64,000 nt of DNA from Ruditapes philippinarum (GCF_026571515.1 NW_026860239.1:1-64000); one strand, 5' to 3'; counted from the first letter of the stretch, positions 11,071-64,000 are shown. Notes: generated by a model not told the origin, from the letters alone. A program made the numbers and translations.

Positions 11071-11769
11071 TTTTTACAATAAAACAGGCAATTTACTATT
11101 GGACAGAGTTAAGTTATTTTAGTAACAGGGATAGGGATTTTTACCATCCCATTGGGATTTTACTATCATATTGAGTCTTTTTCCATCAAACATGGACAAT
11201 GTTCTTTTTTACCACCACACAAGGATTTTACCATGCATTTTCTGCTTTCAAAGTTCCCATTATTCTATGAGCTGTTACAAATGACATGTGCAGCATCAAT
11301 ACTTAAACCTTATTGCAGAATATGAGATTATGTACTCTTAAATTCCTTTACATTAGTTGCATTCACCTTGAAATATTTAATTTCTGTGACAACATTATAT
11401 AACCTTGGAAGGCATTTAGTTCATATTGTATGATGAAATAATTCAAATTAAACTAATTTCTACATGCTTTATCATGTAATAAAGGCAAAGTTGAAGTTAC
11501 AGAACAATAAATGTGAACATATGATTTTACTACACAAGAAAACCTAACAAATCTGTAGTATACCGCCTCAGCTTCTCATAATATTCTTGAGAAATGTACA
11601 ATTCTTATTACTATTTTCTTTACATCTTTCTATAATTTATGTTGGTCAACTGAAAAGGACTCTTTCCCCTCCAGTAATTATATGCTCTTTCCAATTATTT
11701 GTTCATATGAAGCCTGTTTCATCATTCATGCAATAAAAAGTTGTAAATATCACTGAAATATCCTTCATA

Positions 11770-13740
11770 TCACTCATTGTATGTCAGTCAAAGTATGTCA
11801 CTCATTGTACCTCAATCATATCATTTCACTCATTGTACATGAATTATAGTACAATGTATATCACTAATTGTACATGACTCATAGTATATCACTTATTGTA
11901 CATGTACATGAGTCTTGACTCATAGTCTATCACTCACTGTACATGACTCATAGTCTATCACTCACTGTACATGTACATGAGTCATGACTCATAGTATATC
12001 ACTTATTGTACATGTACATGAGTCATGACTCATAGTATATCACTTATTGTACATGTACATGAGTCATGACTCATAGTATATCACTTACTGTACATGACTC
12101 ATAGTATATCACTCACTGTACATGACTCATAGTATATCACTCATTGTACATGTACATGAGTCATGACTCATAGTATATCACTTATTATACATGACTCATA
12201 GTGTATCACTCATTGTACATGACTCATAGTAAATCACTCATTGTACATGACTCACAGAGTATCACTTCTTGTACATGACTCATAGTATATCACTCACTGT
12301 ACATGACTCAAAGTATATCACTCACTGTACATGACTCATAGTATATCACTCATTGTACATGACTCATAGCATATCACTCACTGTACATGACTCAAAGTAT
12401 ATCACTTATTGTACATGACTCATAGTCATAATATCACTCATTGTACATGACTCATAGAATATCACTCACTGTACATGACTCAAAGTATATCACTAATTGT
12501 ACATGACTCATGACTAATAGAATATCACTCATTGTACATGACTCATAGTGTATCACTCATTGTACATGACTCATAGTGTATCACTCATTCTACATGACTC
12601 ATAGTATATCACTTATTGTACATGACTCATGACTCATAGATATATCACTCATTGTACATGACTCATAGTGTATCACTCATTGTACATGACTCATAGTGTA
12701 TCACTCATTGTACATGACTCTATAGTATATATCCCATTGTACATGACTCATAGTATATCACTCATTGTACATGACTCATAGTATATCACTCAGTGTACAT
12801 GACTCATTGTATATCACCCATTGTACATGACTCATAGTGTATCACTCATTGTACATGACTCATAGTATATCACTCATTGTACATGACTCATAGTATATCA
12901 CTCATTGTACATGACTCATAGTATATCACTCAGTGTACATGACTCATTGTATATCACCCATTGTACATGACTCATAGTATATCACTCATTGTACATGACT
13001 CATAGTATATCACTCATTGTACATGACTCATAGTATATCACTCATTGTACATGACTCATAGTGTATTACTCATTGTACATGACTCCTAGTTTATCACTCA
13101 TTGTACATGTACATGAGTCATGACTCATGGTATATCACTTATTGTACATGACTCATAGTGTATCACTCATTGTACATGACTCATAGTATATCACTCACTG
13201 TACATGACTCATAGTATATCACTCATTGTACATGACTCCTAGTTTATCACTCATTGTACATGACTCCTAGTATATCACTCATTGTACATGACTCATAGTT
13301 TATCACTCATTGTACATGACTCCTAGTTTATCACTCATTGTACATGACTCCTAGTTTATCACTCATTGTACATGACTCCTAGTTTATCACTCATTGTACA
13401 TGCCTCCTAGTTTATCACTCATTGTACATGACTCCTAGTTTATCACTCATTGTACATGACTCATAGTTTATCACTCATTGTACATGACTCATAGTTTATC
13501 ACTCATTGTACATGACTCCTAGTTTATCACTCATTGTACATGACTCATAGTATATCACTCATTGTACATGACTCATAGTTTATCACTCATTGTACATGAC
13601 TCCTAGTTTATCACTCATTGTACATGCCTCCTAGTTTATCACACATTGTACATGACTCATTGTTTATCACTCATTGTACATGACTCATGGTATATCACTT
13701 ATTGTACATGACTCATAGTGTATCACTGATTGTACATGAC
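11770..13740. repeat. 28-bp minisatellite (TATCACTCATTGTACATGACTCATAGTA), ~2 kb
   Basis: 28-bp period. Variant units carry the palindromic insert ATGAGTCATGACTCAT, and many later units read TGACTCC. Confidence 0.97.
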
Positions 13741-17094: not shown

Positions 17095-18585
17095 CTTTTT
17101 CAGATTTCCAACTTATCTCCCCTTTTTTCCAACTTCTCTGTCCTGTTTTCCAACTTCTCTCCTGTAGTTTCCCATTTCTCTTCCCTGTTTTTCCCACTTT
17201 TCTCCCCTGTTTTCCATCTTCTCTCCCACTGTTTTCCATCTTCTTTCCCCTGTTTTCCCACTTCTCTCCCCTAGTTTCCCACTTTTTCCCCCTGTTTTCC
17301 CACTTCTCTCCCCTAGTTTCCCACTTTTTTCCCCTGTTTTCCTACTTCTCTCCCCTAGTTTTCCCACTTCTCTCTCCTGTTTATAAACTTCTCTCCCCAA
17401 CTTTCCCACTTCTCTCCTCTGTTTTCCATCTTCTTTCCCCTGTTTCCCCACTTCTCTCCCCTAGTTTCTCACTTTTCCCCCCTGTTTTCCTACTTCTCTC
17501 CCCTAGTTTTCCCACTTCTCTCTCCTGTTTTCAAACTTCTCTCCCCCTATTTTCTCAACTCTCACCCCTGTTTTCCATATTCTCTCCCCTGTTTTCTCCC
17601 CTGTTTTTCATCTTCTCTCTCCTGTTTTCCAACTTCTCTCCCCTAGCTTCCCACTTCCATACCGTTTTCCAACTTTTCTCACCTTAATTCCTACTTATCT
17701 CCCCTGTTTTCCAACTTCTCTCCCCTAGTTTCCCACTTCCCTCCCCTGTTCTTCCACTTCTCTCTCCCTTTTTTCCAAATTCTCTCCCCTGTTTTCCAAC
17801 TTCTCTCCCATAGTTTCCTACTTCCATCCTGTTTTCCAACTTCTCTTACCTTAATTCCTACTTATCTCCCCTGTTTTCCAACTTCTCTCCCCTAGTTTCC
17901 GTGACTTCCCTCCCCTGTTCTTCCCACTTCTCTCTCCCTGTTTTACAACTTCTCTCCCATAGTTTCCTACCATCCTGTTTTCCAACTTCTCTTACCTTAT
18001 TTCCTACTTACCTCCCCTTTTTCCAACTTCTTTCCCATTGTTACCCACAAACCTCCTGTTTTCCATCTTCTTTCCCCTGTTTTTGACTTATCTCCCTGTT
18101 TTCCAACTTTCGTCCTGTAGTTTTTCACTTCTCTCCTTTGTTTGCTTACTTCTCTTCTCTGTTTTCTCACTTCTCTCCCGTTTCCCCACTTCTCTCCCCT
18201 AGTTTGCCACTTCTCTCTGCCTGTTTTGCAACTTCTCTCCTCTGTTTTCCAAATTCTCTCCCCTGTTTTCAAACTTCTCTCCCCTGATTTCCCACACCTC
18301 TCCCTTGTTTTCCCACTTCTCTTCCCTGATTTCCCACTTCTCTCCCCTGCTTTCCCACTTCTCTTCCCTGATTTCCCACTTCTCTCCCCTGTTTTCCCAC
18401 TTCTCTTCCCTGATTTCCCACTTCTCTCCCCTGTTTTCCAACTTCTCTTCCCTGATTTCCCAATTCTCTCCCCTTGTTTCCAACTTCTCTCTCCCCTGTT
18501 TTTCTACTTCTTTCCCCTGTTATCCCACTTCTCTCCCCTAGTTTGCCACTTCTCTCTCCCTGTTTAAATTGTCATTTCTCCCTGT
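17095..18585. repeat. Polypyrimidine ~21-22-bp minisatellite (TTTTCCCACTTCTCTCCCCTG-like)
   Basis: Nearly pure C/T on the + strand, with dimeric higher-order units around 18300-18470. Confidence 0.95.
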
Positions 18586-22300: not shown

Positions 22301-24690
22301 TTAGCTAAACTTTTTCATGATATGCTGAATAAAATAACATAAATTATATAGACGTGTTAAATCGTTACATGTCATTAACTCTTTATATTTCAGTATATTA
22401 GGGTGATGGAATAGATGACGTGGAATGTACTTATGTCTATCCTCATTGAAATATGGACATTTTAAAAGGTAGTGCAGTTCATCACCAATTTCCTGGAGCG
22501 AACACAGATGGCAAATGCGCTGCTCGTGGACAACATAAGACTGTCTCCAGCGTCCTACCTCTACTGGAAGCCTATGGTTCCCTGTTCTGAAGAGGAAGAG
22601 GCTAGTCCTTAAAGTACACGGTAATGACAACAAGTAATTTTCTATATTTAGATTATCTTTAAATAAGTAATACCCCAAACCTTTAGATGAGTTTCTTAAA
22701 GAAGCTGACCATTGTTGGAAGAATTGGTCTATTAAAGTGCGCTTAATTATTTGACCTACATCGTTTTTAGTTATTGTTGACTGATTTAACCAATAAAAGG
22801 AGTGTCCAGTACTATCTAAGATATTCTTTATATAATTTGACCATTTAGAAAAACGAGATGACTGTACAATGTTTTGATAACATATATAAACCAATTTAGA
22901 GTGCTTTGATGTTATAATTCTATTCCAGAATGTGACCATTCTTGATTTGACAGTAACCTCTATTGGATACCTCCCAAATTCGGCATACAACATGTATCTT
23001 GGTGTACTTTTCTTACATTTACCAATTTTTCGCAGAAAAGAGCAATGGACATTTTCAATAAGGTCTAAATTACTGAAACCCCACACCTCACACCCGTAGA
23101 TTAGAATAGGTAGGATGGTGTTGTCAAACAACTTTAACTTAAGATCCACGGGAAGGTCAAGGTTATTAATTCTTGAAAAAAGAGCAAACATTGCCCGATT
23201 AGCTTGGGAAACTAAATATTTAATACATTGAACAAAACTGCCAGAAGATGAAAAAGTAACACCTAAATATTTGTATACTTTAACAATTTCGATATTATGA
23301 TCATTTAGAGTAAAATGGTAATTTTGAGGTTTATTTGTTCCGAAAACAATAACTTTCGTCTTAGAATAATTAACTTTAAGTTTCCATTTTTTACAGTAAG
23401 CAGCAAAATTGTCGAGACATTCCTGGAAGTCCTGTTCATTATCACTAACAATTACAGTGTCATCAGCGTATAAAAGTGTAAGTATCTTAATAAACATAAT
23501 GTCATCATCTATATCTGCACTTATCGCAATTCCGTTATTACTCCTACACAAAAAATCTTCCAAATCATTAAGATAAAGAGAAAATAAAATTGGTGATAAA
23601 TTTTCTCCCTGACGGACACCACATAGGCTTTGAAAAATTTCAGAGATGCGACCTTTAGATGAAACACAAGATTTAACATTTTTATACATATTATTAATAA
23701 CATTAAATATTTTGCCACGAATTCCAGTTTTGAATAATTTACTCCATAATCCTGATCTCCAGACTAAGTCAAATGCTGAACTAAAATCAATAAAACAACA
23801 GAACAATTTCTTTTTACTTGATCTAAGCTTTTCAATCAAAAAATTAAGTGTAAAAATATGATCATTTGTGGAGTAACTAGATCTAAATCCTGCTTGATTT
23901 TCATTAAGCAAATTATTATTGTTTAAAAATTGCTTGATTCTATTATCTAAAATTGATGTAAAAATCTTACCCAAGCAACTCAAAATAGTAATTGGCCGAT
24001 AATTATTAGGTTCAAGGGGGCTACCTTTATTTTTAAAAATTGGCTGGATAGTGCCTATTAACCAGGAGTCGGGTAAAATACCTGTATCCAAAATTTTATT
24101 AAAAAGTTGACAATAGATAGGTGTCATAACATTTCTTGTACTTTTAATATATTCATTCGAAATTCTATCAAAATAAGACGTTGCTTTGTTATTTTTGCTA
24201 TTTTGTATTACTTTATTTATTTCCTCTTCTGCGATAGGTCTGTTTAATGAGTCAATATCTAGTGTATTTATAAAAGATGTATCATCATAAGGCTCGCTGT
24301 AATCATCATGTCGAGTTTCATTTATTGATTTAAAATAGTCAAAAAAAGTTTCAATATCCGGAGACTGCTCTGTTTTATTATTATTGATACTATTTAATAA
24401 ACGCCAGTAGTCTTTAGGCTTATGTGAATTCATGTACCGTAATTTTTTCTCATGACGTAGGTTGTGCGCGGATACATGTGTATTGATTATTTTTCTGTAT
24501 TTTCGGCTCGCCACGAAAAGTTTGTGTTTGTTTAACCTTGACCTATTTAATTGATATACTTTTCTCGCGTTATTATAAATATTTCGTGCACGATTGCACT
24601 GTGGCCCGAACCAAGGTTTACATTCGGACTTCTTTTTATTAAAAGCTGGGCTTGAGGTTTTAAATGTTAATTTCGCTGTGTTTTGAAAAA
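22301..24690 (-). pseudogene. LINE ORF2 reverse transcriptase plus C-terminal CCHC-like finger
   Basis: Motifs NYRPITILSCLGK, NQAGFR, FIDFSSAFD, GVRQGENLSP, YADD, YKYLGV and RICHLC...DELHYLLKC. The same frame extends upstream of the annotated start through KPWF to ~24690. Confidence 0.95.
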
Positions 24691-25704
24691 GACGTTATTT
24701 ATAAGTAATTTTGGATCATCACAGATATTTTCTTGCAGTAACACCGTAATTTCAGCAATAGATGAAGTATTTAGATTTTTTATAAAATCATCTTTTTTAT
24801 TTTCTTTCCATTTTGGTGGCCGATCTACACCATCGTTGAAAACAGTATTATTAGCACGTGCGGTATTTTCGTAATTAATATTCAAGCAGGTTTCAAGCAA
24901 ATTGTGACCGTCCGAGAGTAACGGGTCTGTTTCTACTATTTTAAAGTCGGTAATATATTGCAACACCGGAAGTGACGACATTGAGTAGTCAATAACGGAA
25001 ATATTACGGAACGTATAGGAGCCATCCTGGTCTGAACCTAGCCTACCGTTATGAATAAAAAGACCATTATTTTTGCAAATATCTAACAATTTCTGGCCGA
25101 GCCTATCGACCTTATTACATTTTGAAGACCTATTAATTTCAATATTTAAATATGATAAAGCCTGAAATTCGTTTAATGCATTCATATTTTCTAAATCAAA
25201 GTGATTTATTAAGAACTCGTCAAATATAACATAGTCTGGTAGAGAGCCGGTATGCCCGTTTGCATCTCCTACTATTATAATGTTTTTATATTCCATACAT
25301 TTGCGTTCAATATCAGATTCAAACTCGAAGTATTCGTCTTCGTTTAAAAAACGCGATTGCTCAGGAGGCACATACATATTGCCAATAACTAAGGAAAAAT
25401 GAGCGCTGAGTTCGAGTTTAAGCCAATACACATACTCATTACTACTTGTTAAAGTAACAGTTTTATCAATCAAAGAATTTTTAACAAAAAATCCTAGACC
25501 CCCAGATTTTCGTATCATATCTTTTGACCTAGGTTTTGAGAAAAACGTGTAGTTCGGAATATCAATATTGTCATATATGTCAAGTTTTGTTTCTTGTACG
25601 CAAAAAATAGAATATTTTGTGATCATATCAATAAATTCTGAAAAATTTAGCCTTCCCTTGAGACCACAAACATTGAGCGAACCTATACTAATATTATTGT
25701 CATA
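24667..25704 (-). pseudogene. LINE ORF2 apurinic-like endonuclease domain, frameshifted from the RT part
   Basis: Motifs SIGSLNVCGL (upstream of the annotated Met, same frame), QETK, SGG, YVPP, GDANG, IDY and SDGH. The frame changes near 24690 and near 25705. Confidence 0.92.
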
Positions 25705-26036
25705 TTACATATTAATGGTGAAGAGCAAGAATTGAATGAAGGTATATCGCCTTCACAAATCGACGTTTCATAAATTTCATCATGAAAAAGATCATCACTA
25801 CTCTCATATATTGAATTAAAAGAATTGTTTACCATGTTAGAATTATTAAATCCATCATTATTCAAAAGTGTTCCACTCTTTGTATTATTAGTTATTAAAG
25901 AGTTATTAAATCCATCATAATTGAAAATTGTTCCACTATTTCTAATTTCAGCATAATGAATACACGACAGTTGCTTAGAAGAACACGGGAGATTTGCACA
26001 CCTGTCACAAAAATAGGTCACGTTCCCCACGTGCTC

Positions 26037-26348
26037 CTATTTAACATTGTTGGCGTAGGGGCTACGTTTGTCAGAATGCTTTGCTTTCACCGAGTGCTGT
26101 ATTGGTGGGTGAACATCAAGTAGATATCCTGGAGCAGTGTTAGTTTTGACGGGAATTCGAGATGATACACGGCGACTAGTTGTTTCGTCGTCTGATGAAG
26201 AACTTTCGGAAAATGTTACTTGTTCAGATTCGTTTTTCTCAGCTGGTTGATCAAGAACATCTTGGCTATTAAGATATGATGACTTTTTAACTATTTGATG
26301 ATATTTGTTTTCAACTCTAGATCTAACATTAGAATTACGTGATCCACG
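26037..26348 (-). pseudogene. Probable C-terminal remnant of LINE ORF1
   Basis: About 100 open codons (RGSRNSNVRS...SSSSDDETTSRRVSSRIPVK...ANNVK*) immediately upstream of ORF2. No domain recognised. Confidence 0.55.
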
Positions 26349-26942
26349 GAGAATTAGTAGATGTATTAAAATAAAACATATCTCGAGTATGTTTGTGTGA
26401 AAACTATCAGGTGGTTCTAGGTGACAAATCTTGGTTAGATATATCTGTATTATGCTAAAATAAACCTTTCCCTTCTTTGTTAAAAATGAACTTATTAGGC
26501 TGCTTTAAAATTTTTTAAACTATTTTTTTATTTTCTTTATGGACTAGAATGAATATATTCTTATCCAATAATTATAGTATAAAAAGCTGAAAAATTGTGA
26601 AATTTCTAAGACCATTTATTATTGAGTAAATGGTTTAAATCTCGCAGCAAAAACATAAAACCTGTCCTGGCACTTTACAAAAAGCATAATTATGCAAGTC
26701 CTAAGTGATCACAACTATAGTGCAAAGAATTAAAACTTTAAATAATTTATATATGAAAGCTATAATTTTAATTGACATTTTAACAAAAATTCAAAAATCA
26801 TCAATAGGACGCTTTTAATTTTTTATATTTTTTTTCAAATAGAAATACATGTATATGTAATGGTTTTAGTCATTTACTGTGTTGCCATGGTAATATAACC
26901 TGTTTGATAACTGTGATAACTTTTTGGTGTTATTAATGACGT

Positions 26943-44433: not shown

Positions 44434-45344
44434 ATTTATTAAGAACATGTGTGGGTGTAATTGTTATTCTTAAGAAGATTTAGTTTGCTCATCTTAAAGT
44501 GTTTTTTTTGTACCTCTGTAAATTCTTATGAATGGTTCTGGTGATATTGACATATCTTTATGTGTCTTAATATTTAGTTACATAATAGTTACATCATCTT
44601 TACATCTAAACATAGCAATTTGATCCCTTCATTATTATTTTTTTTTTCTTCAAAAAATGAAGAAAAAAAAATCCTTTCATGACATTGATTAAAAAATTAA
44701 AAGAGACTTCTTATGAATAATTTTGTACATTGAACTTTGAATTTAATATAAAAGTGCTTTGGTTAAAAGATCAACCAATTATATTTTACAGGTACATTTA
44801 TATAATGTAAATAGGTACAATGTTCTACTTTTTTGATTCCAAGGACGTGACAGGTTTATGTTTCAACATTATGTGATGAATTTATCATCAGAGACATTCA
44901 AGAAATTGCATGCACTGTCTGAATCTATTGATTTTACTTTACTTTAAGATTGAATTTCTCTGATATTTTAGACAAATTTAATATTCCACAGTAATAAAAA
45001 TTGATAAGTTAATTTCATTATTAATGTCAGAGAAATTTACAGGTTTTGAGGTCATTGTAGTATTTTTCAAAATGTTGGTTGAGTAATTATTCATGTTTCA
45101 TTATTCAGCACATTTAGCTCAGTTACTACAAGGTGTATTGCCTGTATCTCCATAAAATATAATGTTCAACACCTTTGGTTCTTTTCCATATGAAGTGGTC
45201 ACAGATTACCTTTGTGTTGTCAATTTGTTAAAATTCAACCAAATAAAATGATTCATAAACTGTATTCACTGCCAGTGCTTAGATATTTATTCACTTTGCT
45301 GACAGTGTTTGATGGCTTTATATTCATTCAGTGCTTGTGCCTAA

Positions 45345-47370
45345 CAATATATTCACTTGACTGCCATTGCCTAGCTATATATTCACTTGACTGCCATTGC
45401 CTAGCTATATATTCACTTGACTGCCATTGCCTAGCTATATTTTCACTTGACTTACCTAGCTATATATTCACTTGACTGCCATTGCCTAGCTATATATTCA
45501 CTTGACTGCCATTGCCTAGCAAAACATGTTTATTTACATTTACTTGACTTCCATTACCTAGCTATATATTCACTTGACTACCATTGTCTACCTATATATT
45601 CAATTGACTGCCATTGTCTAGCTATATATTCTCTTGACTGCCATTGCCTATCTAGCTTTATATTCACTTGACTGCCATTGTCTAGCTATATATTCACTTG
45701 ACTGCCATTGCCTAGCTATATATTCACTTGACTGTCATTGCCTAGCTATATATTCACTTGACTGTCATTGCCTAGCTTTATATTCACTTGAATGTCATTG
45801 CCTAGCTATATATTTACTTGACTGTCATTGTCTAGCTTTATATTCACTTGACTGCCATTGTCTAGCTATATATTCACTTGACTGTCATTGTCTAGCTATA
45901 TATTCACTTGACTGTCATTGCCTAGCTATATATTCACTTGACTGTCATTGCCTAGCTATATATTCACTTGACTGTCATTGCCTAGCTATATATTCAATTG
46001 ACTGCCATTGCCTAGCGATATATTCAATTGACTGCTATTGCCTATCTATATATTCACTTGACTGCCATTGCCCTAAGCTATATATTCACTTGACTGTCAT
46101 TGCCTAGCTTTATATTCAATTGACTGTCATTGCCTGGCTATATATTCACTTGACTGCCATTGCCTAGCTATTTATTCACTTGACTGTCATTGCCTAGCTA
46201 TATATTCTATTGACTGTCATTGCCTAGCTATATATTCACTTGACTGCCATTGCCTAGTTATTTATTCAATTGACTGCCATTGCCTAGCTATATATTCAAT
46301 TGACGGTCATAATACCTAGCTATATATTCACTTGACTGCTGATTGTCTAGCTATTTATTCAATTGACTGTCATTGGCTAGCTATATATTCAATTGACTAC
46401 CATTTCCTAGCTATTTATTAAATTGAATGTCATTTCCTAGCTTTATATTAACTTGACTTTCATTGCCTAGCTATATATTCACTTGACTGCCATTGCCTAG
46501 CTATATATTCAATTGACTGTCATAATGCCTAGCTATATATTCACTTGACTGCTGATTGCCTAGCTATTTATTCACTTGACTGCCATTGCCTAGCTATTTA
46601 TTCACTTGACTGTCATTACCTAGCTATATATTCTCTTGACTGTCATTGCCTAGCTATATATTCACTTGAATGTCATTGCCTAGCTTTATATTCACTTGAC
46701 TGTCATTGCCTAGCTATATATTCAGTTGACTACCATAGCCTAGCTATTTATTCACTTGACTGCTATTGCCTAGCTATATATTCTCTTGACTGCCATTACC
46801 TAGCTATATATTCTCTTGACTGCGATTGCCTAGCTATATATTCAATTGACTGCTATTGCCTAGCTATATATTCACTTGACTGCCATTGCCTAGCGATATA
46901 TTCACTTGACTGCCCTTGCCTAGTTATATATTCACTTGACTGTCATTGCCTAGCTATATATTCAATTGACTGCCATTGCCTAGCTATATATTCACTTGAC
47001 TGGCATTGCCAAGCTATATATTCAATTGACTGCTATTGCCTAGCTATATATTCACTTGACTGTTTTTGCCTAGCTATATATTCACTTGACTGCCATTGCC
47101 TAGCGATATATTCACTTGACTGATTTTGCCTAGCTATATATTATCACTTGACTGCCATTGCCTAGCGATATATTCACTTGACTGTCATTGCCTAGCTATA
47201 TATTCAATTGACTGTCATTGCCTAGCGATATATTCACTTGACTGTCATTGCCTAGCTATATATTCACTTGACTGTCATTGCCTAGCTATATATTCACTTG
47301 ACTGTCATTGCCTAGATATATGCTCATTTTAGTGCCTTACTATTATATCACTTCTTAGCTATATATTCAC
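45345..47370. repeat. 30-bp minisatellite (TATATTCACTTGACTGCCATTGCCTAGCTA), ~2 kb
   Basis: 30-bp period. It yields CHCLAIYSLD-repeat ORFs broken by indels. Confidence 0.97.
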
Positions 47371-48380: not shown

Positions 48381-49799
48381 TTTTTATACGCCCGTTTGAA
48401 AAACGGGACGTATTATGGGAACGCCCCTGGCGGGCGGGCGGTTGGGCGGGCGGGCGGCGTCCAATTTTGTCCGGAGCATATCTCCTACATGTATGGAGGG
48501 ATTTTAATGAAACTTCATAGAAATGTTCACCACTATGAGGAGCAGTGTCGCGCACATGAACCAGGTCTCTAGGTCAAAGGTCAAGGTCACACTTAGAGCT
48601 CATTGAAAAACGCTTGTCTGGAGCAAAACTTCCACATGCATAGAGGGATTTCAATATAACTTGGCACAAATGTTCACCATTGTGAGGCGGAGTGTTGCGC
48701 GCAAAATTTAGGTCCTTGCGGCCAAGGTCAAGGTCACACATAGAGGTCAAAGTTTAGATAAAAATATGAAGATGTGCATAGGGACGATTTAATCATCATT
48801 TATTGAGGGATTGTAACACAAATGGTTATTATCATGACTACAGCTGTGACACATGTACTTTAGGTCAATATATGCAAGGTCAAGGTCACTAAAGATGGTG
48901 AAATATCCAGATTTTGTCTGGAGCATATCTCCTACATGTATGGAAGAATTTTTATAATACTTTAGGAATTGGAAATGTTCACCACCATGATATGTATTGC
49001 TCCATGCATGATCCAGGTCTCCAGGTCAAAGGTCAAGGTCACACTTAGAGCTCATTGAAAAACGCTTGTCCGGAGCAAAACTTCTACATTCATAGGGGGA
49101 TTTCGATATAACTTGGCACAAATGTTCACCATTTTGAGGCTGAGTGTCGCACGCAAAATTCAGATCCCTGCGATCAAAGTCAAGGTTACACATAGAGGTC
49201 AAAGTTCAGATAAAAATTTGAAGATGTGTATAGGGACCATTTAGTCATCATTTATTGATGGATTGTAGCACAAATGGTAACTATCATGACTACAGGTGTG
49301 ACACATATAATTTAGGTTAATATTTGCAAGGTCAAGGTCACTGGAGATGATTAAATATCCAGATGTTGTCCGGAGCATATTTTCTACATGCATGGAGGAA
49401 TTTTAATGTTACTTTATAGAATTGTTCACCACCATGAGACGTAGTGCCCTGCACATGAACCAAGTCTCTAGGTCAAAGGTGAAGGTCACAGTTAGAGCTC
49501 ATAGAAAAACGCTTGTCTGGAGCAAAACTTCTACATGCATAGAGGGATTTCAATATAATTTGGCACAAATAAACATCATTGTGAGGCTGAGTGCCGTGCA
49601 TAAAATTCAGGTCCCTGCGACCAAGGTCAAGGTCACACATCCTGTGCATATCTTCCCTACTGATTTGTTTTAAGGTTCATTTAACAACACAGTGCCAAGA
49701 ATAAAAACTTGCTTGCTAGATAACACTTATCCATAATGCCCCCATCTCCATCTAAAGCTTTCGTAAACGGGCGTATTTTGTGACTATGGCACCCTTGTT
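48381..49799 (+). mobile_element. HINE-like element with ~450-bp internal repeats
   Basis: Subterminal IR ATACGCCCGTTT (48386) / AAACGGGCGTAT (49765), (GGGC)n, repeats at 48469, 48916 and 49368 rich in AAGGTCA, and a CTTGTT end. Confidence 0.85.
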
Positions 49800-50786
49800 A
49801 CCTCTTGAATTTGTATAATTACTTCCCCCTGATTTGAATCTATAAGCAGTCAATTTAATGATGAAGTGTTTTCTATTTGGATATACAAAAACAAGAGCTG
49901 CCAACAGTATCTGCTCAAACTGAATGGAAGTGCAGGCTGGCCAGTGGCTCTATAGTCTATGAAGACTGACAACTTTTCTGAGATTTTAGACACATTAAAA
50001 AAATATCATGTGTAAACAACAACAACAGTAGTTCTTACAAATTTATTGCCTATTTTACATTATTTTCTTAATTGATTTATAATTTATTATTTGAGTTGAC
50101 AATTTACAATCAATCACAGTGACAAGACAGTGTGAATGAAATATTTAAATTTGGTCTGAATTGATCTGACATACACATATATATACTGTACATTATTTGC
50201 ATTTATTAAAGGTACATTGTGTAAGGTACTAGACTAAATTATTAATGTACAATGTGTTTGATAAATATTATGAGCAAGAAAATGAACAAAACTCAAAGTT
50301 CTTATATTTTACCAAAATGACTGTTTGATTATTACCATTAAAACTTTTAATTGCCATTATTGACAGACACTTTTTGGTGGAGTATTGCCTTAGATGCTTT
50401 GAACCGGAAAATTTAAACTTTAATTTACAATTTTAATATTTAAATTACACATACAGTAGAGTTAAATACGAACAGTTTCACTTTCAGAACTTGAAAATAA
50501 CAAATGTTATTATATAATCAGGAAGTAAACAAATTTTGGTATAAATTCAAAAAATTTCATCATAAATAAAACACAGTTTTAGTTACAGATATAGTTGTAT
50601 ATCCAGAACTCAGTAGATGTTGTTTTTTGAAAGCTTAACTCCTCAGGTACAAACAAACGTTTGCTCTGTTATAGCTTCACAGTGCACTACCATTCACAAT
50701 AGATAAGTCATCCTGTTTGCACCTATTCTCAAAATTGTCACTGTACAGGTGAAATGTATCCTGGATTCGCTAGGAAAACCTAAAAT

Positions 50787-51021
50787 GAGCCGTGTCATGA
50801 CAAAACCAACATAATGGTTTTGCGACCAGCATGGATCCAAACCAGCCTGCCCATCCGCGCAGTCTGATCAGGATCCATGCTTTTCGCCTACAAACCCTAT
50901 TACAAGTAGAGAAACTGATAGCGAACAGCATGGATCCTGATCAGACTGCGCGGATGCGCAGGCTGGTCTGGATCCATGCTGTTCGCAAAACCATTATGTT
51001 GGTTTTGTCATGACATGGCTC
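50787..51021. mobile_element. MITE, Sola2-like, full-length copy
   Basis: TIRs GAGCCGTGTCATGACAAAACCAACATAATGG / CCATTATGTTGGTTTTGTCATGACATGGCTC of ~100 bp. TSD AAAT at 50783-50786 and 51022-51025. Confidence 0.9.
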
Positions 51022-51939
51022 AAATATTCTTAATAGATGAATAGATGTTATACGGAATTTGGCAAATGTGGGTTTTTCCAAGCTAATTGCGGAGTACAAA
51101 CAAAATTTACTATTAAAGCTTTAAGGTACACAACCTGTAACAATAGATTAGTCAACCCTATTGTATTTATTTTCAAAGCTGTAACTGTAAAAGTTTGTTT
51201 GTACCCCTGGATTAGTTGGGAAAAACCCAAAATATTCTTAATTCCGGAGTAATTAAGTCAACATAATCTACTTGTAATATCAATATGAACATGCATATAT
51301 TAAGACACAGAATGCTGTGCTTTTATAAACTTTACTGATTATAATTTATCAATCAATATTTAAATCCACCTGTGTATTTTAAACTTAAAATTTCAAAATA
51401 AAGATTTTTTGAAAAGAAGACCTTTTAGATGGACAACTTTAGAAATACATATTTGGAAGAGCACCTTTAAAGATAAATATTAGGTGTAAAACCTTTAAAG
51501 ATTTCAGCATAGTAACTGCAGTTGCCACAAAACTGTTTTTCAGCATGTAGGTTCTTTTTTAAAAAGTTTGTATACTAGTAATTATATATATTGAAACAGG
51601 ATACTGTTGTTATAGTGTTTACAAATATAATGAATATATAAAATGACAGATACATTTGAAAAATAAAACCTGATGTATTTTGCCAGTGGAATGAAAATGT
51701 TAATGTGTCATTCAAAGGATACTTTTCTTACATGTTAAGTATGAATTATTTTTCTGATATATTTACATGTATATGAAAATTTTCAGTTGAGTTTTTGAGG
51801 ATTGGAATTGGGTGTTTTTTTGCCATTAGTGGTTAAAGTTGCTGATATTTTAATCACTTGCAAATTGCAACTGTCTGCCCAAATTCCGTAACAACAGGTT
51901 TTTTTTAGATTCTTTCATGTGGGGGAACTATCTGTAGTC

Positions 51940-52442
51940 AGTGGTTCTACTCAGGTTTCCCTTTCAAGCTTCAGGTTCTACTCAGGTTGTTCTACTCAGG
52001 ATCACACACAAGCTTGGTTCTTCTCAGGTTCCCATTCAAGCTTCATGTTCTACTCAGGTTGTTCTACTCAGGTTCACACACAAGCTTGGTCCTACTCTGA
52101 TTCCCACACAAGCTTGGTTCTACTCAGGTTGTTCTACTCAGGTTCACACACAAGCTTGGTTCTACCCTGAGGTTCCCACACATGCTTGGTTCTACCCTGA
52201 GGTTCCCACACAAGCTTGGTTCTACCCTGAGGTTCCCACACAAGCTTGGTTCTACCCTGAGGTTCCCACACAAGCTTGGTTCTACCCTGAGGTTCCCACA
52301 CATGCTTGGTTCTACCCTGAGGTTCCCACACAAGCTTGGTTCTACCCTGAGGTTCCCACACAAGCTTGGTTCTACCCTGAGGTTCACACACAAGCTTGGT
52401 TCTACCCTGAGGTTCCCACACATGCTTGGTTCTACTCAGGTG
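51940..52442. repeat. 30-bp minisatellite (GGTTCCCACACAAGCTTGGTTCTACCCTGA)
   Basis: Exact 30-bp period over 52141-52440, with degenerate units upstream. Confidence 0.95.
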
Positions 52443-54106
52443 AAATAATACACACAAAAGTATATCTGAGGTCTGCCTTACTGCCAGTAAAGCTGAAAAG
52501 GCATAAGATATTGGCAGTGTAATTTATAAATCTAGCCAAATTAAAACAACTAAAACAAATAGAAATCACATTTTTTCTGAGTAAAAGCTTACATTTATGA
52601 CCTTATAAGGTTAGTTGTTAAGTGTGTATGCAAAATATAATGGTAGAAAGTCAATTTAGTAGTAATTATGACTTTGACAGTGTTTTTCATGGACTTACAT
52701 GTAAATAAATCCAAAGGCATAAGAATTTTAGGTTGTACAGTGACAAAAGTGGCATTATCTAATTAAGCTTACTTTTAAACATTTTACCATTTTAAATTCT
52801 TAACCTTCAACAATTTTGGAACTGTCTGTTTTGAAGAATTTTGAGTTACCAAAATAAAAAATTAGTTAAAAAGTTAGTAAAAAAATTAGTTAAAAAGTTA
52901 GTCAACCAACAGTATATAGAGCCTGGTCAAACTACAAGAATCCTGCAATGCACAGGCTTGCTTTGCTCGATATAAGTGGCAAAAGCTTATCATTTTCCGG
53001 TTCCAGGGAGTTAAGAGTTTTTCAATGAATATACCCTCTATTACTGTTTATTCATTCTTTTTATGAATGTAAAAATTTATGGCCATTTTATGATTTATAT
53101 TTTTAAAATTTGTCCGGACTACTTCTCCTATACCTCTAATGCAATTTCAATGGACTTTAACATGATTAATTGGTAGCTCAAGTACTTGTGCATATGACAC
53201 GGTTGTTCCGGTTGAATGATTTTTGGCTGAGTTATGGCCCTTGAATAAAAAAAGTGCATATTTCCCAGTTTACATGCAATTGGCTATCATGAGCTGCTGG
53301 TTGCTCTTCTTGCATACCAGACTGATGTTTAGGATGGCATCACTAAGGCATTATAAATGACATTATTGTAAATCATACACTGCTATAATTATGTAAAAAA
53401 TCAAGACAACAGTTACATATTTTAGTAATAGTTTTGACGAAAATATGTCTTCACAACATATAAAAATAACATAACAACATGGTAGCAATTTTTACATTTA
53501 GCATACCTTAATAAATATATTGATCAAAATGTACATTTAAAGTAAAGTAGAATACAGACATGTTCTTACAGTTTTGATAAGAATATCTGTCCGTTGGGTA
53601 CCCCACCCCCCACCCTCATGGGTGGTAACTCTTAGGCAAGCCAATGAGCAGGTACTGTCAGTCATAACAAATAACTACAACACATGATAGATATTATCAT
53701 TATGATTCCTTCCCAGTTTTATTATTTGATAGGAAACAATATTTTTTTGTGCCAATAAATAACAAAATATTTTACTAAAAACTTAAAAATACTTACACAA
53801 AAATAAAAGTTGAAAGATTTGTACTTAAATTATAAATCAATTTCAGAGGACATTGTTGTGTGATTTTTTGTTTGTTGTTTTATATTTACGACAATACATG
53901 ATTGTCATGATTGTTTCGTTCTGACATTATCACTGATTTCTTATCATTAACCAAATATGGATTTCTTTACTTTTACTGAAATAGGAAGTTCATAAAAGAA
54001 CTTTATACTGTAAGTTTTATCATAGTGATTTATATCAACCAATTATTGATAATGAGCTTTAGTGGATAACATATCTCTAAATTTTTGATAAATTTTGATT
54101 TTTCAG

Positions 54107-55497: not shown

Positions 55498-56726
55498 ATT
55501 AGTCCCCTACCGGTTTACCGGAGGGGACTTTAGGTTTACCCTCCGTCCGTCTGTCCGTCCGTCCGTCCGTCCGTCAGTCCGTCCGTCTGTCCGTCCGTCA
55601 GTCCGTCCGTCCACAAAACTGGATCCCGCGATAACGCAAAAAGTACTGAAAATATTTTAATGAAACTTGATATATGGATAGATGGCAGTATGGAGATTAT
55701 GCACGTCTTTTTCTTTTCTTCCTATGTTAAAAATTCTGGTTGCTATGGCAACAAATAGACTGAAAATATGGCAAATTTTACACATAACCTGGATCCCGCG
55801 ATTACGCAAAAAGTACTGAAAATATTTTTATGAAACTTGATATATAGATCGATGGCAGTATGGAGATTATGCACGTCTTTTTCTTTCCTTCCTATGTTGA
55901 AAATTCTGGTTGCTATGGCAACAAATAGACTGAAAATATGGCAAATTTTACACATAACCTGGATCCAGTGATAACACAAAAAGTACTGAAAATATGTTTA
56001 TGAAACTTGACATATGGGTAGATGGCGGTATAGAAATTATGCACATTCTTTTCTTATCTTCCTATGTTGAAAATTCTTGTTGCTATGGCAACAAATAGAC
56101 TGAATTTCAAGATTTCTGATTCTAGTTTTTAAGTTTTTTCACTATAAGTTCTTTATTTCTTAAGGTATTTTCTTCAAACTTTAAATATAAGTTGCTTGTC
56201 ATCAACCACATCATATGTGACAAGGTTTACAACTCTAGGACAAAATTTTTCAGAATTACCTCCCTTGAACTTAAAATTTTCATGAAAAAAAAACATTGTT
56301 TTTTTAATAACTTCTTTTTCTGAATGTATCTACTTCAAACTTCATATAAATGTTTCTTATTATCACTCAACATTTATGAGTGTTCAATACTCTAGCAAGA
56401 CTATTTCCAGAATTATGCCCCTTTTGAACTTAGACTTTTTTTGAGAAATTGGTAATGTTTACTCCAACTTCTTCAATCATGATAGGATTTTAAAAATGTT
56501 ATATTTTGATAACAGGGATGTTTAAAAAATAAATTTAGAGTGTCCTTCAGTCCGTCTGTCTGTACATTAAAACTGTTTCCTGTGATCACTTTTAAAGAAC
56601 TTTTTCGACAAATTTACTTAAAATAGGAACCTAAGTGAATGGCCAATGGCCCTTCAGAATGTTGCTTGGGCTCTTACTGGTAGGGGACTAATGGATTGCT
56701 TGCAATACTATGATAATTGCTTGTTT
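55498..56726 (+). mobile_element. HINE-like element with ~3 x 170-bp repeats
   Basis: Subterminal IR TAGTCCCCTACC (55500) / GGTAGGGGACTA (56679), long (GTCC)n, 170-bp period (55621, 55791, 55961) and a CTTGTTT end. Confidence 0.85.
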
Positions 56727-56798
56727 ATTGCTTATTTTTATGAAAGCAAATGTAAATTATGTTTCAGACAGAACTAAAGGACATAAATAAAAGCTGTG

Positions 56799-59000
56799 AT
56801 GGATGAAGAACTTGTGAACTGGAGCTGTAGAACCTGTACCTTTATCAATTCCTTCGCCCAAAATGTCTGTGAAATGTGTCAAACTAAAATGCCTGACATA
56901 CCTGAAAATGTGCCCAAAGTTTTTAAAACTAGTGAGTTCAACTCCTCTAACCATTTACCTAGAGTTTTTAAAGGTGTTGACCCAAGGTCAAGCTCACCAG
57001 AAATACCTCCAAAAGTGTTTAAAGGTGTTAAAATTGAGGGAAATAAAGCACCAGGTGTAGATGTAATTGATGGAGTTGGAGCAGTTGAGACTGCTAAGGC
57101 AGATGATAAGAAAATAACTAATGGTAATTCAGAATCTGGTGCAAGCAAAAGTAAAGACGCAAATTCAAAAGAAGCAGTAAAAGAAAAGAAACCTGTAGGA
57201 AAAGTTACTGATAATGCTGGAGGAGCTAAGAAAAAGACAAGCCCTGGAACATCAGCAGTTAAAGGAAGAGCTGCAGGAGATACTAGTAAAGAAAGTAAAG
57301 GCAAAGAGATTAATAGTGATAAACTGAAGAAAGTGAATAAGGTTGTGACTCCTCCAAGTAAATCTGAACTTCCGAAAGTTGCAAAGAGCACTCCTGGTAA
57401 ACATAAAGCAGGTGAGAGTCCACCTATAGTTGAAGATGACTATAAATGGGTTTGTCCAAATTCTACCTGTAATGTACACAATGATGTGTACTTTGACAGT
57501 TGTATATGCTGTCATACAAATAAAACAGCAAATGTGATAATGATTAAACAAGATAAATCAGAGAAGCGAGTCAAACCAAATGAGCCTGTTAAAACTGGTA
57601 AAGACAAAGTTGATATAAAAAGTAATGGAAGTGACAAGAAAGGAAACAGTGAAACTGATCTTAAACAAGATACAAAAGTTGATGATAACAAAGGGGCTTT
57701 AAAAGAAGAGGAAGAAAATTGGTCATGTAAAAGATGTACTTTTAAAAATTCAAAAGCTGCTCTGAAATGTAAAATGTGTGAAGCTCCAAAAAAATCAAAT
57801 ATTCCAAGTCCAGATGAAATTCCAACTGATATTGATTACTCCAAATTCCCCCCTTCAACTTCACCAGTTTCTCCAAATAAGGAAAAAACTGACAGGCGCA
57901 ATATTGTGAATTTGAATAGTGAAGAAGCTGGAGGTGCTAGACCCAAAGTAGTGAATGGTGCAAAAACAGGGGAAAATGTTGATCTAGATACAGAGGAATG
58001 GAAATGTGATAAATGTACATTTTCTTGTAATCCTTCATTTAGTGAAAGATGTACAAAATGTGAAAAGGGACTTAGACCATCTAAATATAAGAAGAGTTCC
58101 CCTAAAACTATTGACAGTGACAAGCCACCTAAAGACCCTCCTAAAGTCCCAGAAAGACTTAAAACCAATGGCAAAGGCATAAAAGAAAATGGTAAACCAA
58201 CTATCCCCAGCAGAGCTCCAGTTGCTGGAAAAAAGCCTGTTGCAAAACCAACAAATACCAAAACTGTAATTCCACCTCCTAAGCCATCAACCTCTGGTGT
58301 GCAAAAACAATCCCCTGATAAGATTGAGAAAAATGCGGAGGAGAGCAAAAATTGGAAATGCTCCAAATGTACCTTTGAAAATCCAAGCTCACAGCTGGTT
58401 TGTAAAATGTGTGACCTCAGTAAAAGTATAAAAATAAAGGAAGGTGACTGGGTTTGTTTGACTTGTACTCTTATAAATGCTGTGTCAGAAACTTCATGTA
58501 CAGCATGTGGTACGAAAAAGGACTTAAAACCTGCAGTAACTGGTGACAATAAGAAACCTGAAGACAAAGAAACAGGTAAAAGTGCTAATGCTGGTAAGGC
58601 AGCAAATGTTGGAAAAGATTCTAAAGATAATAAAGAAGTGATTGAGGTAGATACACCAGAAACAAATGTGAAAGAGAAAAGAATTGTTAAAAAAGGAGCT
58701 AGTAAAGAGCAAGTTAATCAGCAAAAAGGAAAAGATAAAGTCCCAAAGAAAACTGATAAAATGACAGGAAAGCAGTGTTCAGTCTGCACTGTTATGAACT
58801 CTAAATCTACAGGAGAGTGTAAAGTGTGTGGTTACGATCTAGAAATAGGTAAAGGGGACACGACTGAGTCATTGTGCGGGACGATAAGACCGAGACATAC
58901 TTTACAGCGCCAGCAGTCCGTCTCTTTCATTGAGCTGAGGGATATTGAGGACCAAGAGGCCTTAGAGCTGTGGCAAAACATACGATTCTTCTGTAAACAG
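56799..59000 (+). CDS. CAPN15: SOL/calpain-D (calpain-15-like) first coding exon with seven RanBP2-type zinc fingers
   Basis: Acceptor TTTCAG at 56767, in-frame stops before the ATG at 56799, 734 codons, W-x-C-xx-C-T-x-x-N...C-xx-C fingers and a phase-0 donor CAG|GTGAGA. Confidence 0.92.
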
Positions 59001-59707
59001 GTGAGATAAAAATTCCAAATGTATGATACAATGACGGTTTTGCACTACTTTTGATATGAAAGTAAGATTATAGCATTATTTTTCTTGAAGCTGTATGAAA
59101 AAGCCAAGTTTTAAATACAAATGTATAATGGATACTTGTGCCCCTGAAATGTTTGCAAATTGATCTTTATCTTTCAATTAATATACTTGTTAGTGCAGTT
59201 AGTTCATGAAAATATAATTGTGCTAAAGGCAACATTGAAATTAAAGCAATTTTCATTGTGCACAATATCTGTATCTAAAAATGACATTATGCTAATTTTG
59301 TCACTGTCATGTTAAGCGCTGAGTAAGTTACATATTTCAAAAGTTTGATCATTATTTGATAATGACAAATGATGAGGATAAAATATTAAAAAAAGACTGC
59401 CATACTTTTATCAATTACCGATTTTCGAGGGATATTTATTGAATTTTCAGTAGAAAACCAGTCCTTGGTCATAAGATTATTCAAATAATGAAAATCATAA
59501 AATTAAAAACAAATATGACAAAATGTAAAATTAAGTTTGAATTTTGCTTGTACACTTCACATTTTCACTTGTATGGGAAGAATGTCACTACAGTTTTGTT
59601 TTTCCCTTTGAACAATTTCAGACCATGATTACTAGTTCTAAGAGACCACTTTTGGATATTAACCATTCATATAAGGAATTTAAATATATGTTGTTTTTTA
59701 ATTTCAG

Positions 59708-59912
59708 AATAAAGAAAAGTTTGTTGATGATTCATTTCCACCAGTCGACAAATCTTTGTATAAAGACCCTAGTAGTTCGTTAGCTCGCCATTTAGTTCAG
59801 TGGTTACGCTGTGATAAGATTCAGTCGCATCGCTCTGAAGACAAGGTGCCGTGGGTTGTTTATAGAACGCCAATGCCAGATGACATATCACAGGGAGAAT
59901 TAGGGAATTGTT
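59708..59912 (+). pseudogene. CAPN15: Calpain catalytic-Cys exon, copy 1 (1-bp deletion at the donor)
   Basis: Translates NKEKFVDDSFPP...QWLR...DDISQGELGNC. It ends TGTTGTAAAT instead of TGTTG|GTAAAT. Confidence 0.8.
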
Positions 59913-61441
59913 GTAAATATTGTAATTTTGAGTGATATTCGCTTTCTACTTCATTAAAGCAAAGATCATATTCCATGATTAGCTTAGGCTTTGATAAACC
60001 ATTGAATGATATTGTGATGTCTGTTTTGAAAAACCCTTGTAAATGAAATCTTGCCTTAAAAGACCCTAAAAAAATGAACTGATTAAAGGTAATGAAAAGC
60101 CCTAAGATTTGAAATTTAAACTTTTGATTGTAAATTCTACATTGTATTTAAAAATTGTATGAAAGTACAGTAATACCGAAACCAGTAGAATTTTTAATGA
60201 AATTAGTTAAACTGTCCCCATGTTTGACATGTAGTTCCTCCTTATACCCTTTCAACAAAATTGTAAGAATATTGAAGGAAATGTAATTTTCAATTAACAT
60301 TGGTCATAGTGCTTATAACCACTTCCCTAGCTTTTGATTTTTAAGGCCTTAAAGAAATCCTTTAAAAAATCCTTACATTTGCTTCTGAAAATTTGTATGA
60401 ATCAAGTATTTACTTTCTGTTTGCTTAAGCAAAGATGTTGATGAATCATAAAAAAGTTTAGAAATAAAACTAGCCAAATTGGATTCAATAAATTGGATAA
60501 TTTTAACATAAAATTACAGACTTCGCTTAAAATTTCCTAAAATTGTAATTTTTTCGTAACACACTTTATATGAATGTTCAATTGATATTAGTCATTACAC
60601 ATTGTCATAATAACATTTTAATTTTGTTAAATCTTCTTCACTATAAGATCTGCTTTGACAAAACAACTGCTCTGTTTTGTGTGGGCTCATGTGATTATAA
60701 GTAAAGACATCAAATTCATTTGTGGGAATTACTAATAGGAAGCTTTCATGAAGTGATTTAAATTGTATGACGAGGGATATCAATTCAACAAATTTGCTCG
60801 AATTTAATTTGTGATTGTTTTGTTTTCAAGGTTATTTTTTAGGTTATTGGGAATATTTAAATCACTTGAGATAAAAAGGACTTGAATATTTGTCATCTAT
60901 AAACTGATTTGCTTTGTGATTGTTTTCCACTGATTTTTATCAAACCTATGAGACAGCTCCTTTAAAGGAACAGATTTTATTTTATCTATTTTTGATGTCA
61001 AGTGGTTGAAGATGTTTAGTGTAAGAAAGTAATTAAAGCTTAATTGACATTTAAGGAGGTAAAATTCCAAAAATGGAGAGCTGGCTGCTGATTGGCTCAT
61101 TAAAAAACATTCTGTACATTTGATTGGTCAAGATTTAGATTAAGCATTATCATATACATCTAAGGTATAATTTGTCATAGGGGTGATGTCTCCCTCGAGA
61201 ATTTGAGATATAGATTTTTATATTTTTTCTCAAGCCTTTATTGATACATTAAATTGAACAGGAAACCAAGAAACACCTACACTATGAGTCATTTAACTAA
61301 TAAAAAAAGGTAAAATATATGGTTACATCATCAATACGATCAAACACTGTGTTAAATTCCATTAAGAGTAAAGACTGCATGAAAAAAAGTTATAGTAAAC
61401 TTGAACACTATATGAAACTGATTCCCCTCTACAGAGCACCT

Positions 61442-61722
61442 TTCCCCCCTTGTGACAGAGGGATGCCTTTAAAGGTCGAGGCATCAGACTTGAAGCCACC
61501 ATTTATCTCTGCATGATTGTAAGGGGCGACTAAATAGGTTCAATTACTGGAGTCTATGCATCTCTTAGCTCCAGCAGGTGAGGTGGTTTTGACGCCTTGT
61601 GTTGCAGCAATGCTTAACGTTTGTAACACCCAAGGTTAGCCAAAATCATCTTTCATTTTTTAGTGCCATTTGACCTAAATTTTGTTATTGCGTTGTAAAA
61701 CCAAACCAAACAAAACAAACAA
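61442..61722 (+). mobile_element. SINE-like retroposon with an 11-bp TSD, nested in an older SINE-like remnant
   Basis: TSD ACAGAGCACCT at 61431-61441 and 61723-61733, with an (AAAC)n tail. Confidence 0.75.
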
Positions 61723-61934
61723 ACAGAGCACCTATCATTTCAAGGAGTTCTAGAAATTCTGGTGTTATTTTGTGCCTCAAATAATGCATGAACTGGGGCA
61801 CTTGAGATCCTCCACAGGGAAAGCTGTTAAGGCACCATAATTATAACCTTTGCAATATAAATGTGACTTAAAACCCAAAATTGAAAATAAAATAAACACC
61901 AAGGGTTGTTAAATATGAATTGTTATATAAACAG

Positions 61935-62118
61935 GTTTTTAAGTGCTCTAGCTGTATTGGCCGAGCAGCCTGAACTGATCAAGAAAATCATCCCGACGAA
62001 GGATTATTGTCCGGAAGGTGTATATCAGGTGCGGTTATGTAAGGACGGCGTGTGGCAGATAGTCTTAATAGACGATGTCTTACCATGTAATGAAAATGGA
62101 AGGCTGATATTTTCTCAG
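61935..62118 (+). CDS. CAPN15: Calpain catalytic-domain exon following the active-site Cys (copy in the first duplication unit)
   Basis: Phase-2 acceptor ACAG|G. Translates (W)[61 protein letters not shown], with a phase-0 donor CAG|GTAAAA. Confidence 0.85.
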
Positions 62119-62617
62119 GTAAAAATCAACATAATTTATTGTATTTTGAATTTGAAAAAAAATAAGGAAATTAAATACGATATCTTATCAGTGAGAGAGA
62201 TAACTTATATCGAACACTGTTTATTCCCAAGTTTGAAATTTTTTTTATCATTTTTATCATAATAAAAATAAATAAAATAAAAATGAAAATATTTCTTAAA
62301 ATGATAGTACATAGCTCATCTTTTAGTGATTTTGTATTGAAATTTCCACTTCAGCCATGCAAATTAAACTCAAATAATTTATATCAATGTAAGAATTTAA
62401 GCATTACTATGATTTATAACTATTAATTTGTGCCAGGCCCTAGATTTTGTGAAAATTCATACACTTAAGCATTTTCACTAGTATGGGAATAGTGTCACTA
62501 CAATTTTGTTTTTTCATTTGAACAATTTCAGATCATGATTACTTGTTTTAAGAGACCACTTTTGGATATTAACCATTCATATAAAGAATTTAAATATATG
62601 TTGTTTTTTAATTTCAG

Positions 62618-62823
62618 AATAAAGAAAAGTTTGTTGATGATTCATTTCCACCGGTCGACAAATCTTTGTATAAAGACCCTAGTAGTTCGTTAGCTCGTCA
62701 TTTAGTTCAGTGGTTACGCTGTGATAAGATTCAGTCGCATCGCTCTGAAGACAAGGTGCCGTGGGTTGTTTATAGAACGCCAATGCCAGATGACATATCA
62801 CAGGGAGAATTAGGGAATTGTTG
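62618..62823 (+). CDS. CAPN15: Calpain catalytic-Cys exon, copy 2 (intact)
   Basis: 206 nt, phase 0 to 2, carrying the QGELGNC(W) active-site motif, with an intact TG|GTAAAT donor. Confidence 0.9.
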
Positions 62824-64000
62824 GTAAATATTGTAATTTTGAGTGATATTCGCTTTCTACTTCATTAAAGCAAAGATCATATTCCATGATTAGCTTAGCT
62901 TTTGAAAAACCGTTGAATGATATTGTGATGTCAGTTTTGAAAAACCCTTGTAAATGAAATCTTGCCTTAAAAGACCCTAAAAAAATAAACTGATTAAAGG
63001 TAATGAAAAGCCCTTAGATTTGAAATGTCAACTTTTGATTGAAAATTCTACATTGTATTTAAAAATTGTATGAAAGTACAGTAGTACCTAAAGTGGTAGA
63101 ATCTTCAATGAAATTAGTTAAACTGTCCCCATGTTTGACATGTAGTTCCTCCTTATACCCTTTCAACAAAATTGTAAAAATATTGAAGGAAATTGTAATT
63201 TTCAATTAACATTGGTCATAGTGCTTATAACCACTTTCCTAACTTTTTTAATTAACATTGGTCATAGTGCTTATAACCACTTCCCTAGCTTTTGATTTTT
63301 AAGGCCTTAAAGAAATCCTTTAAAAAATCCTTACATTTGCTTCTGAAAATTTGTATGAATCAAGTATTTACTTTCTGTTTGCTTAAGCAAAGATGTTGAT
63401 GAATCATAAAAAAGTTTAGAAATAAAACTAGCCAAATTGGATTCAATAAATTGGATAATTTTAACATAAAATTACAGACTTCGCTAAAAATTTCCTTAAA
63501 TTGTAATTTTTTTCGTAACACACTTTATATGAATGTTCAATTGACATTAATCATTGCACATTGTCATAATAACATTTTAATTTTGTTAAATCTTCTTCAC
63601 TATAAGATCTGCTTTGACAAAACAACTGCTCTGTTTTGTGTGGGCTCATGTGATTATAAGTAAAGACATCAAATTCATTTTGTGGGAATTACTAATAGGA
63701 AGCTTTCATGAAGTGATTTAAATCGTATGACGAGGGATATCAATTCAACAAATTTGCTCGAATTTAATTTGTGATTGTTTTGTTTGCAAGGTTATTTTTT
63801 AGGTTATTGGGAATATTTAAATCACTTGAGATAAAAAGGACTTGAATATTTGTCATCTATAAACTGTTTTGCTTTGTGATTATTTTATGCTGATTTTTAT
63901 CAAACCTATGAGATAGCTGCTTTAAAGGAACAGATTTTATTTTATCTATTTTTGATGTCAAGTGGTTGAAGATGTTTAGTGTAAGAAAGTAATTAAAGCT

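Follow-up and report, generated by a model that had tools for sequence, protein, structure and literature searches.

The question raised by this locus is whether a clam calpain gene carries its active-site exons twice, and whether the extra exons serve the enzyme, disable it or are a product of assembly. The window is the whole stretch of Ruditapes philippinarum DNA that was analyzed, 64 kb of AT-rich animal DNA with no N at any position, and the gene and the duplicated unit described below lie on its plus strand. The coding part of exon Z (56799-59000) is a 2,202-nt open reading frame of 734 residues that ends in phase 0 and encodes RanBP-type zinc fingers. Profile matches to PF00641 (E = 2.3e-17) occur in four stretches of exon Z, a pattern made for this analysis marks six C4 motifs, and the encoded protein is 38% identical to Mactra calpain-15 along its whole length. 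Exon A1 (59708-59912, 205 nt) runs from the start of the calpain catalytic domain to the catalytic Cys and is frameshifted, being one G short at its donor. Exon B1 (61935-62118, 184 nt) completes the Trp codon, ends with ...IFSQ, and is intact and 93% identical to Mactra calpain-15. Exon A2 (62618-62823, 206 nt) is intact and ends in GNC TG|gt. Exons Z, A1, B1 and A2 all have canonical AG/GT ends. Positions 1-58 of PF00648 are matched by A1 and by A2 and positions 60-121 by B1, and the QGxLGxCW motif is whole when A2 is joined to a B exon and broken in A1. Alignments and profile matches bear out the order Z-A1-B1-A2 proposed in an earlier, sequence-only reading of this DNA.

This organization resembles that of the SOL calpains (CAPN15, calpain-D), in which N-terminal RanBP-type zinc fingers are followed by a Peptidase_C2 domain with the QGxLGxCW motif. 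The nearest named homologues are Mactra antiquata calpain-15 (P0005) and Dreissena polymorpha calpain-D (P0004), with 75-76% identity on A2, and the A2 protein is 75-77% identical to calpain-15 of other heterodont clams. All named nearest homologues are calpain-15/D; the C-terminal SOL homology domain would fall outside the window. The catalytic His and Asn of P0005 lie 160-185 residues past the Cys, and the equivalent region is beyond this window. The protein database searches returned no protein of this species, the best match being 77% identical on A2, and scans of metagenome contigs gave no match. The Trp codon is split by an intron, and exon read-through products in the database suggest the same for other SOL calpains. 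The difference from these enzymes is that A and B are present twice here with A1 frameshifted, whereas full-length mollusc homologues have the motif at most once. The 162 stored proteins include 58 of at least 400 residues that match both A and B, and an A+B cassette repeat is found in none of the 58. The 1,141-residue SOL-type protein P0013, in which A+B is matched twice at positions 426 residues apart, was rejected as a parallel, its repeat spanning the whole catalytic domain and representing a different event. P0013 is possibly an annotation artefact, and its self-BLAST returned only the diagonal. P0077 has two partial A matches and was also set aside, its N-terminus being repetitive and doubtful. 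Judged from search listings, the literature covered, which includes few subscription papers, contained no paper on intragenic SOL/CAPN15 exon duplication.

Alignments place copy 1 of the duplicated unit at 59489-62449, about 2.96 kb that comprises the end of the Z-A intron, A1, an intron, B1 and the start of the post-B intron. Copy 2 begins at 62450 and runs off the window end at 64000. At the junction (62449-62469) the post-B intron is joined to the pre-A intron with no N gap. The breakpoint had been put at 62460 in the sequence-only reading; it lies near 62450, at a position matching 59489, and copy 2 lacks 59507-59559. The first ~20 nt of copy 2 are an imperfect match to 59489-59506, and upstream of 62450 there is no homology between the copies (score 27, reached by 34 of 200 shuffles). 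The repeat itself is far above chance (blastn E = 0.0 over 1,541 nt). At the window end the offset between the copies is 2,960, which predicts B2 near 64.9 kb, outside the window.

The two copies differ by 45 substitutions in 1,489 aligned bases, or 3.0% (59552-61040 versus 62461-64000). The five indels from 59560 onward are all extra letters in copy 2 (1, 1, 46, 1 and 1 nt), the longest being a 46-nt local tandem insertion at 63204-63249 found in copy 2 only, and one further extra copy 2 letter lies at the left edge. The 53-nt segment at 59507-59559 of copy 1 is a polymorphic indel, missing from copy 2 and also from one contig (record 3) of DNA run X1; record 12 of DNA run X6 enters the segment and reaches 59526. 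Apart from the missing G, A1 and A2 differ only at 59743 and 59788 (2 of 205 sites), and both changes are synonymous as the sequence-only reading had stated, an outcome with a chance probability of ~0.04. Divergence is 1.0% in the exon and 3.3% in the introns (Fisher p = 0.077).

The A1 donor has one G fewer than the A2 donor (GTT|gtaaat versus TTG|gtaaat), and its effect on the reading frame was followed by translating six exon routes with B1 used in place of B2. The routes Z+A1+B1 and Z+A1+B1+A2 reach a stop at codon 805 (...GELGNCCF*), just after the catalytic Cys, as had been claimed. Z+A1+A2 stops at codon 803 and Z+B1+A2 at codon 747. Z+A2 and Z+A2+B stay open, again with B1 standing in for B2. 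A2+B amounts to 390 nt and runs from phase 0 to phase 0, in agreement with the earlier account of the pair. Among these six routes, with B1 in place of B2, the intact Cys-Trp motif is restored only by skipping both A1 and B1, and to this extent the frame logic behind the claim that active enzyme needs both to be skipped is right.

Whether the missing G is real or a consensus error is nearly balanced. The four 1-nt indels from 59560 onward are all letters missing from homopolymers in copy 1. Homopolymer letter loss is a long-read error type; one of the four, at 60283, is a natural polymorphism. A single indel combined with no amino-acid change is more typical of an error than of neutral decay. 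On the other side, the consensus near the missing G looks highly accurate: 1,169 nt are identical to short-read contigs, and the 2,202-nt exon stays open through 65 homopolymer runs of at least 4. X6 contigs barely cover the site, which does not appear among the indel rows listed for the DNA runs.

The age of the copies was approached through other alleles. Four runs of 24 listed (DNA X1 and X6, RNA X21 and X23) were compared with 56700-62617, which is 5,918 of the 7,501 bases searched. X1 is the best-matching run, with 0.63 of the words against 0.35-0.39 in the other DNA samples, and runs X15-X17, judged by word count only, hold 0.21-0.33, about the exon share. Measured against the window, other alleles represented by seven contig pieces from two animals show 2.3-6.7% divergence, a range that includes the 3.0% between copy 1 and copy 2. 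Among the letters listed, five of six copy 2 letters are shared with X1 record 3 and X6. This allele-level divergence, together with the absence of the 53-nt segment and the five letters held in common with another allele, makes the copies resemble a pair of alleles, probably set in tandem, from a functional single-copy gene. A divergence pattern of this kind means that the duplication would postdate the divergence of the alleles, and it is probably either very young or false. Unequal crossing-over and an assembler alike can place alleles in tandem. A long-evolved regulatory cassette would not be expected to look so allele-like.

Four X1 pieces are identical to the window (58787-59123, 59212-59377, 60960-61458 and 61747-61913), together the 1,169 nt with 0 differences and 0 gaps, and X1 therefore carries the window haplotype. 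Its record 3 is a 1,753-nt contig that extends from the left flank through exon A and differs from copy 1 by 31 substitutions and 16 gap letters, for a net change of -12 nt. Over the same span copy 2 differs from copy 1 by 37 substitutions and by extra letters only. Position 60405 is A in both copies and T in X1 and X6. On these letters record 3 is a third sequence, equal to neither copy, and copy 2 appears to resemble it only in part. If X1 comes from the diploid animal that was assembled, then copy 2 would itself be a third sequence and not the second allele, and the duplication would be real on one chromosome. Both record 3 and copy 2 could instead be mosaics that each combine two haplotypes, in which case this argument would fall. 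The intronic intervals 61452-61700 and 56700-56730 are dispersed repeats of very high copy number, where contig depth is in the thousands and RNA reads come from both strands. Matches to the dispersed repeat at 61450-61700 crowded the comparison tables, and the results given for these runs are those among the rows listed, with 391 substitution, 30 indel, 23 joint and 6,641 piece rows beyond the cut.

No contig of X1 or X6, the two DNA runs compared, spans the junction. X1 leaves 62394-62441 uncovered, and record 7 alone accounts for its depth over 62244-62441 (2.36 expected and observed). At a haploid depth of 3-4 the probability that a word occurs fewer than two times is 9-20%, and the window-identical B1 is also missing from X1, so the lack of a junction-spanning contig in this low-depth run says nothing. 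The depths of X1 records 3 and 5 (7.66 and 7.07 versus ~3 for haploid pieces) were rejected as evidence on copy number, as they fit two or three copies alike. X6 comes from a second animal and has higher depth. Its depth is 9.75 over 62244-62441 and 0.58 over 62442-62617, the latter equivalent to ~11 bases at its depth. This step suggests that the X6 contig leaves the window at the junction, that is, that the animal has one unit and the duplication is not fixed, for one other animal and from contigs, which show presence and not absence.

RNA runs X21 and X23, of which about 4 and 6 in 100 were read, contained no splice joints, at a depth too low to inform: mostly 0-3 over the exons, with one bin near B1 at ~8. 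Depth is similarly low on exons and introns, and X23 covers 5 of 30 bins, none of them wholly within exons. The A1 and A2 acceptors are one base apart in their last 48 nt, and the intronic donor GTAAAT is common to both. A weaker A1 donor would favor the skipping of A1 alone, which is itself a stop (codon 747), and nothing in the splice sites would couple the skipping of A1 with that of B1. Near the A1-B1 junction, 12 cryptic donor/acceptor pairs keep the frame open, and each of the 12 either uses weak, non-consensus-looking sites or loses the GNCWFLS motif. A real duplication in which such sites rescue the frame would give an in-frame protein with a mutilated first copy of the subdomain; the poor sites, the loss of the motif and the lack of support in the low-depth RNA of X21 and X23 leave this outcome barely credible.

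The duplication may instead be a false exon gain. By this account an assembler would have joined the animal's two haplotypes end to end over a heterozygous 3-kb interval, the gene itself would contain a single A and a single B, and the missing G would stem from polishing that left a consensus error in the GG run. The sequence-only reading had called a false duplication equally serious; it is still serious, at a likelihood that we put short of even, and the leading place goes to a young, unfixed duplication that had been missed. An assembly error agrees with the allele-level divergence and its pattern of purifying selection, with the resemblance of copy 2 to the other X1 haplotype at the 53-nt indel and at five of the six listed letters, with the lack of a junction-spanning contig in both DNA runs compared, and with the loss of a copy 1 homopolymer letter at every single-base indel. 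It also agrees with the absence of the cassette repeat from all 58 homologues, of which only P0013 has a repeat, over its far longer interval. The class of error is described: the false exon gains reported by Ko et al. 2022 (PMC9516828) resemble this locus in their tandem exon copies, allele-level divergence and highly heterozygous setting. The same report finds an N gap between most false duplications, unlike the gapless join here. The third sequence in the best-matching DNA run is a further difference, the second X1 haplotype departing from copy 2 at 60405 and in its pattern of gaps, and the apparent accuracy of the consensus nearby also argues against an error.

A regulated cassette is very unlikely. 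By this account the choice of A1+B1 would switch the gene between active calpain-15 and either mRNA decay or a dominant-negative protein of zinc fingers only that binds ubiquitin. Drosophila sol may make a short zinc-finger-only product, which would count for such an isoform. Exons 3 and Ab of U2AF1 are reportedly tandem duplicated alternative exons of the poison type; the likeness is that inclusion gives a premature stop and that the cassette stems from exon duplication. The frame logic allows the switch, inclusion leading to the stop at codon 805 if the missing G is real. The zinc fingers of SOL proteins bind polyubiquitin (PMC12002525, citing Hastings 2018), and dominant-negative SOL impairs plasticity in Aplysia (PMC5650170). 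The earlier proposal that inclusion acts as a poison cassette, or purposefully yields a zinc-finger-only protein, nevertheless found no support. The age of the copies does not exceed that of alleles, X6 apparently lacks the junction and has almost no cover past it, and the near-identical acceptors and common intronic donor would, with a weaker A1 donor, favor the route to the stop at codon 747 over coupled skipping. Neither of the two RNA runs, at their uninformative depth, gave a spliced read, and the cassette is not conserved in any of the 58 homologues. Proteins P0158-P0162, which consist of zinc fingers only, were not accepted as evidence of such an isoform: they stop within a few residues of crossing the Z-exon boundary, as expected of intron read-through in genomic contigs. 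Known poison cassettes are generally old, fixed and conserved and have diverged splice signals, unlike the allele-like copies here, for which no spliced RNA was seen at low depth.

We give about an even chance to a real, young and unfixed tandem duplication that constitutes a broken, largely non-functional allele. Out-of-register recombination between two ordinary alleles would have duplicated two exons of the catalytic domain in tandem. Default splicing of Z-A1-B1-A2-B2 would then reach the stop at codon 805, long before the coding sequence ends, and the transcript would either be subject to nonsense-mediated decay or yield a truncated protein. Should the missing G prove an error, this splicing pattern would instead place 130 extra residues, a second catalytic Cys among them, inside the protease domain, which is also likely to be disabling. 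Normal enzyme would come only from rare skipping of A1+B1, leaving the animal dependent on the other allele. Low-frequency polymorphic duplications are reported to pervade the Ostrea edulis genome, both coding and non-coding (bioRxiv 10.1101/2025.06.24.661118), and oysters are reported to carry a high genetic load (PMC5804265); these reports make a young, unfixed duplication an ordinary reading. The locus resembles the polymorphic segmental duplications of bivalves, as described in Ostrea edulis and for mollusc hemizygosity (bioRxiv 10.1101/2020.09.15.298695), in being of kilobase scale, probably present in some animals only and touching coding DNA. It differs from those described in lying inside the active-site exons of a conserved gene and in being known from an assembly and contigs rather than from read depth or spanning reads.

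The feature is real as assembled and ordinary in kind. In the likely case it either adds to the deleterious structural alleles of a highly polymorphic bivalve or reflects a mistake in assembly, and its practical value is as a warning when this gene is annotated. An improbable variant is a self-rescuing allele, in which a frameshifted null would have gained a working A+B from another allele by unequal crossing-over. Active enzyme would then be made by skipping A1+B1, and transcripts that include the pair would be degraded or would encode a product able to bind ubiquitin but dead as a protease, an incipient poison cassette. The locus would matter more only if carriers skipped A1+B1 efficiently, for two alleles would then be seen to give rise to a poison or rescue cassette in a single step.

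Several other features of the window were recorded. Three-copy tandem units of ~450 nt and ~170 nt occupy 48464-49718 and 55616-56125, respectively, and local tandem duplication is common in the window. Long minisatellite arrays, all without N, lie at 45265-47370, 52077-52495, 8976-11100, 11767-13750 and 17100-18580, the first two with 30-nt units. A short MITE-like element at 50786-51022 has 102-nt inverted arms at 95% and an inner hairpin. On the minus strand, 22301-26504 holds a near-intact LINE retrotransposon whose endonuclease (345 residues) and reverse transcriptase (797 residues) frames have no internal stops. Its single frame break, near 24680, lies beside short T and A runs and points either to a single slippage in a young copy or to another homopolymer consensus error.
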